Source of the DNA: an uncultured Dehalococcoidia bacterium | GTDB taxonomy: Bacteria > Chloroflexota > Dehalococcoidia > GIF9 > UBA5629 | Direction of reading: 5' to 3' | DNA length: 56,189 bases | NCBI GenBank assembly: GCA_903929005.1 | Contig: CAIYTC010000177.1 | Span: 1 to 56,189 of the forward strand | Shown here: one piece after another, positions 28,559-33,369 of the stretch | Layout of the letters: each line of letters opens with the position of its first letter | Numbering within the stretch: the first letter of the stretch is position 1 | Program-made: the position numbers and the translations under genes | The notes under the pieces: model-generated | Seen by the model: only the letters and a program-made list of their open reading frames with translations | Told to the model about the DNA's origin: nothing | The model's database searches: none

Positions 28559-29605
28559 CTACGTGGACAGCGCTTGCCGGCGGAGCTGCCCGCAGGCCGC
28601 CTGGATGCCCGCCCCACGCTGCTCCCTCTGCGTCACCATAACACCCGCCTCTTCCAGCACACGCCGGAAGTCCACAATCCTAATAGCCTCCGGCGGATAG
28701 AAACCGCTTTCCGCCACCGTATTGAAAGGGATCAGGTTCACATGGCAGTTCTGCCCTTTTAAGAGATCGGCCAGCCTGGCAGAGTCGGCCTTGCCATCGT
28801 TTACCCCTTTGAGCAGGCAGTATTCAAAGGTCACCCTGCGGCTGGTTTCCCTGAAATAGTGCTTGCAGGCATCGGTTATTTCCTGCAGCGTGAAACGCGT
28901 CATGCCGGGCACCAACTTCCTGCGCAGGGCATCGTCGGCGGCGTGCAGCGAAACAGCCAGCGTACATTGCAGATCCTCGCCTGCCAATCTGTATATGCCG
29001 GGCACGTAGCCGATCGTGCTCAGCGTGACATTGCGCATGCCGATTTTCAATTCGGTATTGAGCAAATGCACCGCCGCCAGGGTGGCATCGTAATTTAATA
29101 ACGGCTCGCCCATGCCCATGAAGACCACATGGCTGACCCTGCCCTCCCCGTCGAGCAATTTCTCCTTAATGGCAACCTCGCCAACAGAGAGCACCTGGTC
29201 AACTATTTCCCCTGCCGACAGGTTGCGTTTAAACCCGCCGGCGCCGGTAGCGCAGAAAGCGCAGCCGATGGGACAGCCGACCTGGGTGGATACGCAGCAG
29301 GAAAAGCGGCCTTCATAAGGCATGCCCACCGTCTCGACCAGCTCCCCATAGGCAGGCTGCAAGAGCAACTTGAAGGTGCCGTCTTTTGACTTGCTGGTCT
29401 TTTTCACCAGGGAGCGGCCTGCCTCGTAGCCCTCCTCCAACTTCGTCTTGAAGGCAACAGGCAAATTAGCCATTTGGCTCATTTTATTGCACCCCTGCCG
29501 GTAGAGCCAGTCAGCTACCTGCTTTCCGCGGAACTCCTTTTCGCCCAGTTCAACAGCGAGTAGCTTCAGTTCAGCTGTAGACATGCCCAGCAATATTTTC
29601 CTCAT
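28559..29605 (-). CDS. rlmN: 23S rRNA (adenine2503-C2)-methyltransferase RlmN
   Basis: CVSTQVGCPIGCAFC, VFMGMGEPL, SLHA, NLIPFN, AACGQL; start reassigned to ATG 29605. Confidence 0.95.
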   Translation of the reverse strand: MRKILLGMSTAELKLLAVELGEKEFRGKQVADWLYRQGCNKMSQMANLPVAFKTKLEEGYEAGRSLVKKTSKSKDGTFKLLLQPAYGELVETVGMPYEGRFSCCVSTQVGCPIGCAFCATGAGGFKRNLSAGEIVDQVLSVGEVAIKEKLLDGEGRVSHVVFMGMGEPLLNYDATLAAVHLLNTELKIGMRNVTLSTIGYVPGIYRLAGEDLQCTLAVSLHAADDALRRKLVPGMTRFTLQEITDACKHYFRETSRRVTFEYCLLKGVNDGKADSARLADLLKGQNCHVNLIPFNTVAESGFYPPEAIRIVDFRRVLEEAGVMVTQREQRGAGIQAACGQLRRQALST

Positions 29606-29669
29606 TTTAGATTTCCCTGCCCAATTATGTATTACTGACGGGCGGACTGCAAGGATTAACAAATCCGGT

Positions 29670-29698
29670 TTGACATCCCCGTTTTTTGGGAGTAGCAT
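29670..29698 (+). promoter_or_regulatory. Sigma70 promoter of the orphan structured transcript
   Basis: TTGACA-17 nt-TAGCAT. Confidence 0.7.
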
Positions 29699-29703
29699 GA
29701 AAC

Positions 29704-29996
29704 CGAGGGTAATAAACAAGACTAACCCTCGCGGAGGTGGTTAATGGTCAAAAAACAGGCCATGCTCGTGATATGGCACTTTCCTTTGACATGCTCTCAT
29801 CTGCGCGGGGAGCAGAGGTAAGCTCCCCTGACGCAGGCAGTGAGAGCCTGTAAAACTCCCGAGCTCTCCGGTACGTAGCAGTAAAGCTGCGGAATTATGG
29901 ACAAAGCAGAGAAATCAGGCTTGCCTGAATGGGGGAGTAGGGAGGAAAACGGATCTGAAAGATCTAAGGGGCTTCGCGTTGCGAAGCCCCTTTTTT
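29704..29996 (+). ncRNA. Candidate structured ncRNA (may also encode a 25-aa peptide at 29744..29821)
   Basis: Own promoter and intrinsic terminator; many nested stems; no long + strand CDS fits inside. Confidence 0.6.
29966..29996 (+). terminator. Rho-independent terminator
   Basis: AAGGGGCTTCGC-GTT-GCGAAGCCCCTT followed by a T run. Confidence 0.88.
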
Positions 29997-30025
29997 ATTC
30001 TCTTATATTACCGTTTCGCGGCTTT

Positions 30026-30982
30026 CTAATACCCGTCAGTTGCATTCAATCCTTTGGCTTTGAATATATCAATTATCCCGCACATGCGCTCGCTGGTGAG
30101 CGGTGTGCGGCCGTTCAGTTGGTAGGCCCGGCCCAGCGACTGGTACTTGGCCCGGCCCCACTCATGATAGCCCAGCAGCGACATTTTCTCGGCCTTCATG
30201 CCCTGCAGCTTGCCGGCCAGCGCCTGCATATATTTATCGCTGTCGTTGTAACCGGGGATGACTGGCAACCTGATCCAAATGCGGGATTTATTGGCATTCA
30301 TGGCCTTCTCCAAATTAGAGAGGATAAGCTTGTTGTCCACACCTGTACCATCGCGGTGCTCCTCAGCGTCGACATGCTTGACATCAAAAAGCACCAGGTC
30401 GGTATATTCCAGCGCTTTCTCCAATATCTCCCAGGGTACATGTCCGCAAGTATCCAGGGCAGTGTTGAAACCGCGCTCTTTAAGACAGGTGAGCAACTCC
30501 AGGGCGAAACCGGCCTGAAGCAAAGGTTCACCGCCCGACAGGGTGACGCCTCCTCCCGAGTTGCGGTAGAAAAGCTCATCTTTTGAGCACTCTTCGACCA
30601 CCTCCCCAACGCTCATCTGCCTGCCGGCCAGCTCAAGGGCGTCTTCCCAGCAGACTTCCATGCATTTCAGGCAGAGGTCGCATTTATCCCTGTCCAACCG
30701 CAGGCCGCTGGCAGCCAGCGAGAGCGCGCCAGGTGCACAGACCGTAATGCAGCGCCCGCAGCCGTTGCAGCGGGCCTCCCTGACCATTAACTCGGCAGCC
30801 GGACTGAGCGATTCAGGGTTGGAGCACCACTTGCAGCGCAGGGGGCAACCCTTGAAAAAGACCGTGCTCCTGATGCCCGGACCGTCATGTATGCTGTAGC
30901 GCTGGATGTTGAAGACCAGGCCTTTAGTGTCCGTACCGCCCTTGTACGCGCTTCCGGCAGGCTCCCGTGAATCTAAAAGCAC
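30026..30982 (-). CDS. Glycyl-radical enzyme activating enzyme (radical SAM with ferredoxin-like insertion)
   Basis: HDGPGIRSTVFFKGCPLRCKWCSNPE, two extra CxxCxxCxxxC motifs, GGVTLSGGEP; overlaps the GRE stop. Confidence 0.93.
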   Translation of the reverse strand: MLLDSREPAGSAYKGGTDTKGLVFNIQRYSIHDGPGIRSTVFFKGCPLRCKWCSNPESLSPAAELMVREARCNGCGRCITVCAPGALSLAASGLRLDRDKCDLCLKCMEVCWEDALELAGRQMSVGEVVEECSKDELFYRNSGGGVTLSGGEPLLQAGFALELLTCLKERGFNTALDTCGHVPWEILEKALEYTDLVLFDVKHVDAEEHRDGTGVDNKLILSNLEKAMNANKSRIWIRLPVIPGYNDSDKYMQALAGKLQGMKAEKMSLLGYHEWGRAKYQSLGRAYQLNGRTPLTSERMCGIIDIFKAKGLNATDGY

Positions 30983-33369
30983 TGCGGAGTCCTGGCTATG
31001 ATGGAATCCTGTATATTCCTGTCCAGGTCGATAAAGTAGGCAGCGAAGCCGGCCACCCTTACCATCAGCGCGGGGTACTTCTCAGGATGCTCCTGCGCAT
31101 CCTCCAGCGTCTCCCGGTTCACGGTGGAGAACTGGATATGATGTATGCCCATATCGGCGAACGTTTTGAGATACTGCGCGAAGACCCCGGCGTTATGCCC
31201 TACCAGGTACTGCGGCATGAAGCTCTGGTTGAAGAGGTGGTTCCAGCTTATCAGCGGGTCCACCTTGGCCACGGAGCGCAGCACGGCGGTCGGGCCTTTC
31301 TTATCGCGACCGGCCATGGGGGAGATGGTACCGTCGTTGAAGGGGTCGCCCAGCATCCGGCCATCCGCGGTCGCGGCGCAGACCCTGCCGAAGCTCCACC
31401 AGGCAGTGGCGGCTGTGCCGTCAATGTGCACGGGGCCGCCCCAGTTGGTCTTGCATTTAGCGGTCTCCTCTTCGAGGCGGCGGGCCACGTCGCGCGAGGT
31501 CAGGTCGGCATAGTCGTCGTCATTGCCGAATTTGGGTGCGCGCAGGCACATCTGCCGGATCTCCTCGAAGCCCTTCCAGTTGTTTTTGAGCGCCTCTACA
31601 AGCTGCGTCATGGTGATTCTCTTATCGTCAAAAACCAGCTTCTTGACCGCGGTCAGCGAGTCCGCCACGGTGTTGAGTCCGAAGAGCGTCACATCGCGGT
31701 AATCGGGCATGTAGTTCCAATCGCGCACGTCCTGCGACCTCTCGATGCAATCATCGATGACGGAGGACAGGAAGGGACGCGGCGCCCACTCTTTATAGAG
31801 GGCGTCGGCGATATTGGCGATGCGCACCAGGCGGTGTATGACCAGCCGGTAGTTCTCCATGGTGGCATCGAAGAGCTCCTCCATGGAGGTTATCTTCCCG
31901 GGGTCAAGTACCTTGTTGCCTGCCCTCTTGTAAATGGCCAACGGGTCAATGCCCAGCGCCTGGTTGAGGCAGAGGGGAGCGGGCACGCCGCTGGCCCATG
32001 CCGATATATGGCTGAAGTTCTTGCCGGGGATGGTGGGCACCATGCAGTTGTTGATGGAGTAATTGCGCGCATCTTCGAGCGGGGTGCCCAGGTTGACCAG
32101 CCTCTGAACAACGACCTTGTCATTGAAGATGGCCGGTTGGGGCATGCCCGACGCCAGGCACTCGATGGCCTTGTCCACCAGTTTCGGGGGTATGCCGTCA
32201 TGCCAGCGCAGGGCCAGCGGCGGAACGATGGCGCGCACGCTCATAGTAGCATCGAGGATGATAAAGCTCATCTCGCCGGTTACATCGCGGCCTTTAGAAT
32301 CCACACCGCCGATGGTCACCGTCTGGAAGCCCAGCGCGCCGCCGCCGAAGCCGGACCAGATAGGCGCGTGCAGGAAACCGGTCTCCTGGAATTTCACAAA
32401 AAGGAACTCTACCAGCTCCTGGGCCGACTCGCGGGTTACCTTGCCGGCGGCCAGGTCGTTTTCGTAGAAGGGATTGAAGACAACATCGAACCTGATGCCG
32501 GAGCCCACCTGGGGCATCTCCAGGAAATTCACCACCAGGTGGATAAACCAGTAAGACTGAATGGCCTCGTGCAGTGTGCGGGCGGGATCCTCGGGAACGC
32601 GGTCGCAGATATCGGCGATGTTCTCGAGTTCCACCTTGCGCAGCACTTCCTTCTCAGATTTGGCCAGGCTGCGCGCCAGTGCCGCGTACCTTTTGGACCA
32701 CCGGCTGACGGCCTCCAGTGTTATGATAGCGCCCTGCAGGAAATCCTTCCTTTTAACAAAATCAATGCCGTTGATGGTCTCAGCCATATATTCTTCATCA
32801 AGCTTCTTGAGACGCTCCTTAGCTTCCTCCAGGATACCTTTCAGCCCCATGGAAAGTATCTTGTCATAGTTGGGCGTGGCCGATTCCCAGTTGAAGATCC
32901 AGAACTGCTCGGCCAGCTCCTTGGTCAGGTATTTTTTGGCCATGTGGTGGATGGAGCGGTCGCCCCAGTAGGCGCCTATCTCCTTGAGCTCCTGTCTGCC
33001 CTCGTCGGTGAGCATGCTGGTGTAGACCTGGCCGGGGGCGGTCTCACGGGCTATCCACTTCCAGGCCAGTTCGGGGTAAAAGGGCACCGAATCGCTGTTG
33101 GAGGCGTAATTGCCCACGATCATTTCGTCGGGCCGGATATAAATTGTCATGTTATCCAAAAGGTGCGCCAGCGCCCTGGCGCGGCGCAGCGAAGTGGGTT
33201 GCCCCTCGGTTTGCTTGTATGATTGTGTCACCAGCTTCGCGCGCTCCAGGTCGAGCGACCAGATGAAGCCCGGCCTGGTGGCCCTGGCATCAGCGCTGAG
33301 CGACTCCAGCGCCACCTGCTGCGCCTTGATAGGAGTCTTAACCATTAATTCCTGCGTTCTTGTGGTCAT
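30973..33369 (-). CDS. Glycyl radical enzyme (PFL-like family), function unknown
   Basis: Gly loop LMVRVAGFAAYF; PKFGNDDD; Cys loop NNCMVP. Confidence 0.92.
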   Translation of the reverse strand: MTTRTQELMVKTPIKAQQVALESLSADARATRPGFIWSLDLERAKLVTQSYKQTEGQPTSLRRARALAHLLDNMTIYIRPDEMIVGNYASNSDSVPFYPELAWKWIARETAPGQVYTSMLTDEGRQELKEIGAYWGDRSIHHMAKKYLTKELAEQFWIFNWESATPNYDKILSMGLKGILEEAKERLKKLDEEYMAETINGIDFVKRKDFLQGAIITLEAVSRWSKRYAALARSLAKSEKEVLRKVELENIADICDRVPEDPARTLHEAIQSYWFIHLVVNFLEMPQVGSGIRFDVVFNPFYENDLAAGKVTRESAQELVEFLFVKFQETGFLHAPIWSGFGGGALGFQTVTIGGVDSKGRDVTGEMSFIILDATMSVRAIVPPLALRWHDGIPPKLVDKAIECLASGMPQPAIFNDKVVVQRLVNLGTPLEDARNYSINNCMVPTIPGKNFSHISAWASGVPAPLCLNQALGIDPLAIYKRAGNKVLDPGKITSMEELFDATMENYRLVIHRLVRIANIADALYKEWAPRPFLSSVIDDCIERSQDVRDWNYMPDYRDVTLFGLNTVADSLTAVKKLVFDDKRITMTQLVEALKNNWKGFEEIRQMCLRAPKFGNDDDYADLTSRDVARRLEEETAKCKTNWGGPVHIDGTAATAWWSFGRVCAATADGRMLGDPFNDGTISPMAGRDKKGPTAVLRSVAKVDPLISWNHLFNQSFMPQYLVGHNAGVFAQYLKTFADMGIHHIQFSTVNRETLEDAQEHPEKYPALMVRVAGFAAYFIDLDRNIQDSIIARTPQCF

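Follow-up and report, generated by a model that had tools for sequence, protein, structure and literature searches.

RNAIII/hld, SgrS/SgrT and SR1/SR1P are dual-function small RNAs: they are stand-alone, structured RNAs of a few hundred nucleotides, which also encode a peptide of a few tens of residues. In leader-peptide attenuators, a mini-ORF led by a Shine-Dalgarno sequence lies over one of the strands that form competing helices, with an intrinsic terminator downstream. The same arrangement is found in rnTrpL from Sinorhizobium, a trans-acting attenuator RNA with the peptide peTrpL. Two further RNAs have to be considered: tmRNA is abundant and structured and contains a short reading frame, and 6S RNA is abundant and forms a rod of about 180 nt, in which the ends are paired and the centre opens into a bubble.

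In Dehalococcoides mccartyi CBDB1, an RNA-seq study reported three abundant monocistronic intergenic transcripts without an Rfam match (FEMS Microbiol Ecol 2026, PMC12961961). One of these, sRNA3 (1327943-1328253 (+) in NC_007356.1, 311 nt), has a TATAAT box 5 nt upstream and is located between cbdbA1639 (prephenate dehydratase, −) and cbdbA1640 (SAM hydrolase/halogenase family, −). Its normalised reads were 395 ± 114 with 1,2,3-trichlorobenzene and 59,459 ± 14,194 with 1,2,4-trichlorobenzene, a condition dependence of about 150-fold; the authors suggest that the 1,2,4-trichlorobenzene cultures were nearer stationary phase. The accessible parts of this paper mention no function, ORF, fold or occurrence outside D. 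mccartyi for sRNA3. They report a 23-aa small protein, which is other than the predicted peptide described below, and a separate 188-nt 6S-like RNA candidate, also without an Rfam match.

The window analyzed here is a stretch of 56,189 nt from an uncultured Dehalococcoidia bacterium (contig CAIYTC010000177.1 of assembly GCA_903929005.1, positions 1 to 56,189). At 29670-29998 (+), this window contains a stand-alone unit, which consists of a promoter, an RNA of about 295 nt and a terminator (Table 1). The RNA resembles the dual-function small RNAs in being stand-alone, structured and a few hundred nucleotides long with a peptide of a few tens of residues. However, it has no sequence or structural relation to them, and its ORF is interlocked with a hairpin, one strand of which recurs in the 3′ domain. 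With the attenuators, it shares the Shine-Dalgarno-led mini-ORF over a competing-helix strand and the intrinsic terminator. In contrast to attenuators, there is no regulated downstream gene, the conserved codons do not repeat a single amino acid, and a large conserved three-way junction is placed between the ORF and the terminator. By analogy with rnTrpL, the released RNA could act in trans. Unlike tmRNA, it has no tRNA-like domain and its frame has its own Shine-Dalgarno sequence and start codon; a true tmRNA is encoded elsewhere in the same genome. Like 6S RNA, it is abundant, and its proposed D. mccartyi counterpart rises in the cultures thought to be nearer stationary phase. However, it does not form a closed rod with a central bubble and does not match RF00013.

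Table 1. Features of the RNA gene in the window
Feature	Position	Strand	Remarks
Sigma-70-type promoter	29670-29698	+	−35 TTGACA 29670-75, 17-nt spacer, −10 TAGCAT 29693-98
P1, 5′-terminal hairpin CGAGGGT/ACCCTCG	29704-29731	+	both-side changes in 5 of 6 pairs; 92% of cells paired
Shine-Dalgarno GGAGG	29733-29737	+	6 nt before ATG
Small ORF, 25 codons and TAA (MVKKQAMLVIWHFPLTCSHLRGEQR)	29744-29821	+	TAA 29819-21
P3, long irregular hairpin GCTCTCA...TGAGAGC	29793-29847	+	both-side changes in 7 of 18 pairs
3′ domain, three-way junction	29848-29950	+	model R1 scores 106.5 bits
P4	CTCCC 29856-60 / GGGAG 29940-44	+	3′ domain
Internal loop	GA 29861-62 / A 29939	+	between P4 and P5
P5	GCTCTCC 29863-69 / GGGGAGT 29932-38	+	3′ domain
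P6	GTAGC 29875-79 / GCTGC 29886-90	+	3′ domain
P7	TCAGG 29915-19 / CCTGA 29924-28	+	3′ domain
P8, small hairpin GGATCT-GAA-AGATCT	29951-29965	+	both-side changes in 3 of 4 pairs
Intrinsic terminator	29966-29998	+	scan match 29966-29992; 12-bp stem, 8 G-C pairs, then T-run

The promoter, TTGACA-17-TAGCAT, matches the consensus at 10 of 12 positions in a promoter scan, and the RNA would start near 29704. The scan by itself proves nothing because the number of promoter-like sites in 1.6 kb (one) equals the expectation from shuffled sequences (mean 0.9); the support comes from conservation. The sole promoter-like site within 29000-30600 is the one on the + strand. Its −35 box (TTGAC[AC]) and −10 box keep their alignment in 22 homologues, the latter being TAGCAT in 21 and TAACAT in one. 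The homologues are alignable exactly from the −35 box to the T-run of the terminator, whereas the sequence outside both ends diverges (n = 22). In a 30-sequence alignment, 10 of the 12 pairs of the terminator helix have changes on both sides. Thus, the near-consensus promoter and the strong terminator, both of which had been proposed in a preliminary description made from the sequence of the window, are upheld.

The RNA gene is divergent from rlmN (28559-29584, −) and convergent with the genes for a glycyl-radical-enzyme activase (30026-30982, −) and, next to it, a PFL-like glycyl radical enzyme. In this region (30026-33369, −), the activase is a radical SAM protein with a ferredoxin-like insert and the PFL-like enzyme has 798 aa. 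It had been stated that no + strand gene follows, and this is correct: there is no co-oriented gene downstream in the window, and the next downstream gene is on the opposite strand in all nine family loci for which ORFs were listed. Two weakly matching members (G227 and G025, see below) also lack a co-oriented downstream gene. At a third such member, G043 (locus L085), a 363-codon co-oriented frame begins about 85 nt past the terminator; this is the sole such locus seen. Three + strand ORFs of the region (38, 53 and 229 aa) had no Pfam match. The 229-codon ORF (29897-30586, +) begins inside the 3′ domain of the RNA and is antisense to the activase gene; in the alignment, as judged by eye, the ATG lacks conservation, and the ORF is probably spurious. 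The divergent arrangement with rlmN, seen in the window, recurs in 17 of the 22 close loci and in 3 of the 8 further loci that were checked. It is local synteny only: none of the four distant members among those eight has rlmN next to the RNA gene, and for this reason we rejected a functional link between the two. The activase gene is convergent in 16 of the 22 loci, all from the same genus, and the convergent neighbours differ between genera.

The RNA (29700-29996, +) is predicted to fold at −124.8 kcal/mol, compared with −92.3 ± 5.1 kcal/mol for shuffled sequences (z = −6.4), and none of 200 shuffles folded as well. The reverse strand of the region is likewise predicted to be well folded (z = −5.9); invariant G-U pairs, of which there are several, fit the + strand only. 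For the whole RNA, covariation was measured on an RNAalifold consensus of 30 sequences, which are less than 97% identical. In this consensus, 92.8% of the pair cells are standard pairs, as against 43-50% when the partners are slid by 1-3 columns. Compensatory changes among the homologues were found as well: both sides have changed in 37 of 75 pairs (9-19 in the slid controls), and none of 500 shuffles reached the observed pairing and covariation values. The helices backed by covariation are P1, P3 (two segments), P4 with P5, P6, P7, P8 and the terminator, and the register of P4 with P5 is 99.4% paired with five covarying pairs in the 30 sequences. In sequences from a second order of Dehalococcoidia (see below), P8 is apparently missing, as read by eye. 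For the 3′ domain, 54 distinct sequences of both orders were aligned. Although this alignment was fitted to the structure of the covariance model and so favours that structure, 95.6% of cells are paired (41-57% when slid) and 16 of 22 pairs have changes on both sides (3-8 when slid). All five pairs of P4 covary in these sequences, and the closing G-U pair of P5, beside the GA/A internal loop, does not vary in any of the 54.

Five stems of the preliminary description recur in the consensus with covariation, namely CGAGGGT/ACCCTCG, the long arm GCTCTCA.../...TGAGAGC, TCAGG/CCTGA, GTAGC/GCTGC (within the proposed CGTAGC/GCTGCG) and GGATC/GATCT, the last as GGATCT/AGATCT. Four other proposed pairings are not supported. 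ACAG/CTGT is paired in 55% of cells, the long-range pairing TTTCCT/AGGAAA has no both-side change, and ACTCCC/GGGAGT has one pair broken in 25 of 30 sequences, the covarying register being P4 (CTCCC/GGGAG) with P5. These three pairings reach a covariation score of 0.079, compared with 0.078 in shuffled alignments, and 193 of 500 shuffles were as high. GCCAT/ATGGC is 93% paired with no compensatory change. We also rejected a start-codon hairpin, AUGGUC/GGCCAU, which shows no covariation, and a sequestration of the Shine-Dalgarno site by the UUUCC tract, which was predicted in just 5 of 15 sequences and whose pairs are invariant. Two helices near the start codon and the Shine-Dalgarno site are without any variation and are therefore uninformative either way. 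With conservation from promoter to terminator and a covarying fold, the unit is a conserved RNA gene on the + strand, stand-alone and structured as had been supposed.

The region had been described as a non-coding unit with no long CDS. It is true that there is no long CDS, but a conserved ORF of 25 codons with a GGAGG site was overlooked. The term non-coding does not hold, since the 5′ half is this Shine-Dalgarno-led ORF under constraint at the amino-acid level. The GGAGG site lies 5-7 nt before the start codon in all 22 homologues, and distant members have a comparable site. In all 22 close homologues, the ORF has the same 25-codon length without an indel, and it is intact in 27 of the 29 loci from the pattern scan described below; one of the other two has 24 codons and the other is L038. 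In L038 (about 693-840, −), one A is lost from an A6 run at codons 3-4, which leaves a 7-codon ORF in that MAG only, either by a homopolymer assembly error or by a real loss. Summed by codon position, the entropy of the ORF is 11.2, 12.5 and 17.3. For the 12-codon core (33 sequences, without L038), pN/pS is 0.39 in frame as against 0.72 and 1.20 in the other frames, and the 33 sequences have no stop in frame as against 26 and 6 out of frame. The Ala codons GCC, GCT, GCA and GCG are all used in the core, as are the Gln codons CAG and CAA. The core motif, QAxLxx[W/R]xFP, is retained in distant homologues although its codons have changed synonymously: among 18 distant sequences, Phe is encoded by TTT (13) or TTC (5) and Pro by CCT (11), CCC (6) or CCA (1). 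Within the family of the window, TTTCCT and CAGGCC are invariant, third codon positions included. In the window itself, the invariant Trp codon occupies 29774-76, and Phe-Pro is encoded by TTTCCT at 29780-85.

In contrast to the core, the C-terminal 11 residues of the peptide vary freely. Their codons make up the 5′ strand, which corresponds to codons 17-21, and the upper part of P3, the stop codon sits in the apical part of this hairpin, and the C-terminal half of the peptide is shaped by it. ORF length over the family is typically 18-28 codons, with one case of 44 (L138). Because the frame and the core motif of the small ORF are conserved with synonymous changes, the RNA is probably not purely non-coding; together with the Shine-Dalgarno site, these sequence comparisons are indirect evidence that the ORF may be translated. 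The peptide is charged and without a hydrophobic span. A type I toxin mRNA was rejected on this ground and because the only promoter-like site in 29000-30600 is on the + strand.

A BLAST search with 29660-30000 showed that the sequence is single-copy in its own genome. Single-copy, near full-length matches with 68-90% identity were found in 21 of 60 relatives; they cover 15 of 16 genomes of the same genus and six other genera of the family. Four other families of the order, represented by 24 genomes, gave no match. When 185,579 species genomes were scanned with a degenerate pattern for the 3′ half, 29 loci were found, of which 28 are in genomes named as Dehalococcoidia, Dehalococcoidales, Chloroflexota or 'Chloroflexia' MAGs and one is in a genome named only as 'uncultured bacterium'. 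We used two covariance models of the 3′ domain: R1 was built from the 30 sequences of the window's family, and R2 with distant members added. R1 matched 31 of 76 other genomes of the family (9 of 25 genera), where the RNA is single-copy, and, in an even sample of the class, 5 of 151 genomes, the window's own counted. Outside the family, it gave weak matches in G043 (35.2 bits) and G227 (26.7 bits, E = 6e-4 per genome). R2 scores G227 at 43.2 bits. In the second Dehalococcoidia order, to which G227 belongs, it gave single-copy matches in 26 of the 151 genomes sampled, from 17 of 89 genera, and it matched 7 of 151 genomes in the class sample.

Upstream of the matched domain, G043, G227 and G025 (a weak match within the family) all have a promoter, a 5′ hairpin, a Shine-Dalgarno sequence and an ORF of 21-26 codons, and their peptides have the same core: MTGKQAWLCRWFFP..., (L)EKLQALLCTWFFP... 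and MRKQAILGRWNFP..., respectively. R1 was never trained on the 5′ half; therefore, the Shine-Dalgarno sequence and ORF in these three members count in favour of the ORF. In G227 and in the window, the parts have the same order (hairpin, Shine-Dalgarno sequence, xFP ORF, P3, junction domain and terminator), and the two RNAs are homologous by models R1 and R2. A second pattern scan gave ten new loci, two of them true members, and L092 (MTRRQAWLCRWAFP...) was added. The other eight (seven from other phyla and one in a coding-like region) had no model match and were discarded; by a rough estimate, eight is about the number expected by chance. We inspected 19 of the 26 second-order loci. In 15 of them, there is a Shine-Dalgarno-led ORF of the form ...C[R/T/V/C][R/W]xFP..., one with 44 codons; two have a variant without Phe-Pro, and two have no recognisable ORF. 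The ORF at L138 (1398-1532 in the orientation of the RNA) has no stop in the P3 loop and extends for its 44 codons into the 3′ domain. Two contigs of G096, C33 and C5, carry differing copies of the RNA in one MAG (L080 and L088; 91.6 and 81 bits), which may reflect a mixed bin or a true second copy. Taken together, the RNA belongs to an uncatalogued family, which is found in two orders of Dehalococcoidia.

No signature of tmRNA, RNase P, SRP, 6S or a riboswitch had been recognised in the preliminary description, and a cmscan-type check against Rfam 15 agrees: no family reached its gathering threshold in the whole window, RNase P models included. The best sub-threshold match in the region was RsmY (20.1 bits against a threshold of 57), there was no consistent match over six homologous loci, and matches at permissive thresholds were at chance level. 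ARAGORN found no tRNA or tmRNA in the window. tmRNA and SRP RNA sit elsewhere in the genome: RF00023 (tmRNA) is above threshold elsewhere in all five genomes scanned, and SRP RNA elsewhere in four of them. In contrast, RF00013 (6S) had no match in these five genomes (G000, G006, G008, G090 and G227, two of them single-contig), so that the 6S model may be blind in this group. Given the separate 6S-like candidate from D. mccartyi, 6S RNA of Dehalococcoidia probably escapes the current Rfam model.

The preliminary description also assigned the RNA to an undescribed class. This is not supported, because the distant member G227 occupies the sRNA3 locus of CBDB1 (PMC12961961, 2026). The G227 copy is flanked by a PF00800 gene (−) and by a PF01887/PF20257 gene (−), that is, prephenate dehydratase and the SAM hydroxide adenosyltransferase family. 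Its TATAAT box is 5 nt before the predicted start, and it extends for about 314 nt to the end of the T-run. Thus, it agrees with the published description of sRNA3 in flanking gene types, size (311 and about 314 nt), TATAAT spacing, monocistronic organisation and lack of an Rfam match, and from position, size, strand and −10 box we concluded that the G227 copy is the sRNA3 locus. Locus, strand, size and promoter were compared with the published data for the G227 member. The window's own copy, in contrast, is from another order and sits beside rlmN, and is linked to sRNA3 by the covariance models alone (26.7 bits with R1 and 43.2 bits with R2). As far as full-text searching and Rfam show, the fold, the ORF and the two-order spread of the family are not in print.

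Contigs of at least 85% identity from metatranscriptomes (four runs of three studies) cover only 29714-29993 of the region. They come mostly from relatives, and the parts that they leave uncovered say nothing about transcript ends. The summed word depths in the four runs were 13.9, 290.8, 346.2 and 7,861; since the runs were chosen as containing this sequence and DNA carry-over is possible, these values should be read accordingly. Flanking word depth was 0-20 on the rlmN side and 0-7 beyond 30116.

We consider that the RNA is probably a dual-function small RNA, in which the ORF is translated and the 3′ domain acts as an RNA. Two layers of conservation can be distinguished in it. The first consists of the ribosome-binding site and the short ORF, whose N-terminal core is kept at the amino-acid level and which ends inside P3. 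The second is the three-way-junction domain, kept at the RNA level; this domain is outside the ORF and, in the 54 sequences, under strong structural selection.

The RNA might instead be a plain mRNA of a protein of about 25 aa, with the 5′ hairpin, P3 and the 3′ domain only stabilising or tuning it. A conserved Shine-Dalgarno-led ORF, a 5′-terminal hairpin and strong terminator as is typical of stable mRNAs, and a high contig depth in RNA libraries would be natural for such an mRNA. However, the 3′ domain is better conserved than the ORF, and its invariant unpaired and G-U positions (GAGCU ... AGUA), kept over two orders while the helices covary, exceed what a stabiliser needs. Moreover, conservation of the peptide is confined to about ten residues at the N-terminus, and the ORF varies in length between 18 and 44 codons. 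We therefore regard this explanation as unlikely.

That the RNA is purely non-coding, the ORF being a by-product of constraints at the RNA level, seems very unlikely. The Shine-Dalgarno sequence is at the right spacing, frame-breaking indels are absent from all 22 close homologues and from 27 of the 29 pattern-scan loci, codons for Ala, Gln, Phe and Pro change synonymously with a lower pN/pS in frame, and the motif is kept where the nucleotide sequence has diverged. These features outweigh the invariance of TTTCCT and CAGGCC in the window's family, the coincidence of the 3′ half of the ORF with hairpin P3, and the two of 19 second-order loci without an ORF, all of which would fit an RNA without a coding function.

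Because the short ORF overlaps a hairpin strand, alternative pairings are possible and Phe-Pro is conserved at a fixed position of the peptide, we also considered a leader- or arrest-peptide attenuator in cis, which would act on a downstream gene or on read-through antisense to the convergent gene. The co-oriented ORF about 85 nt past the terminator of G043 would also fit. A co-oriented downstream gene is absent in the window, in nine of nine family loci, in G227 and in G025, the convergent neighbours vary by genus, and the terminator stem is strong in all sequences and lies outside the alternative pairing. Thus, an attenuator in cis is highly improbable, and cis elements of the attenuator or riboswitch type were rejected on the same lack of a co-oriented gene, with G043 as the sole exception. 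A diverged housekeeping RNA (6S, tmRNA, SRP RNA or RNase P RNA) can practically be dismissed: although the RNA is abundant and structured and the Rfam 6S model is blank in all five genomes, tmRNA and SRP RNA are found elsewhere in five and four of these, ARAGORN and the whole-window Rfam scan with its RNase P models are blank, predicted and consensus folds are multi-domain with unpaired 5′ and 3′ ends and no central bubble, and D. mccartyi has a separate 188-nt 6S candidate (PMC12961961).

Starting from a dual-function small RNA, a more specific model can be formulated, which we put forward only tentatively, since it is distinctly unlikely in its full form. In this model, the RNA is a translation sensor: the nascent peptide (...[W/R]xFP) and the ribosome set the 3′ fold by strand exchange between P3 and P5, and the 3′ domain then acts in trans on a protein or an RNA at the entry into growth arrest. 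A ribosome on the ORF would have to melt the 5′ strand of P3. Because the 5′ strands of P3 and P5 share a 7-mer, the 3′ strand of P3, once released by translation, could invade P5; this invasion would refold the 3′ domain, and the RNA would then report the translation status. The conserved ...xFP keeps a constant spacing upstream of P3, which would be compatible with a nascent-peptide arrest as well, and the condition dependence published for sRNA3 suggests a role near growth arrest. Within each lineage, the first seven bases of the two 5′ strands are identical or nearly so: the shared 7-mer is GCUCUCC in the window's family and GCUCCUC in most of the second order, and both strands have GCUCCUU in L139. 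This feature suggests a coupling of the ORF half and the 3′ half, since the ORF extends through the P3 copy. The alternative helix between the P3 3′ strand and the P5 5′ strand has at least four contiguous pairs in 24 of 24 sequences and seven pairs in 13 of 24. As a signal, the shared 7-mers are weak, however, because purine-rich and pyrimidine-rich strands pair promiscuously. When a ribosome-sized block was placed at Phe-Pro, the alternative helix replaced P5 in 6 of 26 predicted folds (2 of 26 without the block), P5 persisted in 15 of 26, and the alternative fold costs a median of 6.6 kcal/mol. In these fold predictions, the thermodynamic support for the switch is weak. If the translation sensor is true, the switch would resemble an attenuator, but with the RNA itself as its output in place of a downstream gene, and it would be kept across two orders.

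Dehalococcoidia include the main organohalide-respiring bacteria; they are abundant in sediments and hard to manipulate genetically. To our knowledge, almost nothing is known about post-transcriptional regulation in this class. One unexplained transcript of D. mccartyi now becomes a family of at least 57 distinct sequences from two orders; the fold of this family is defined, its mini-ORF is conserved, and its covariance models are fit for deposit and searching. A unit that was flagged as non-coding carries a short ORF that is likely to escape automated annotation. The Phe-Pro peptide, the invariant GAGCU/AGUA internal loop and the repeated helix are offered as targets for work on this family.
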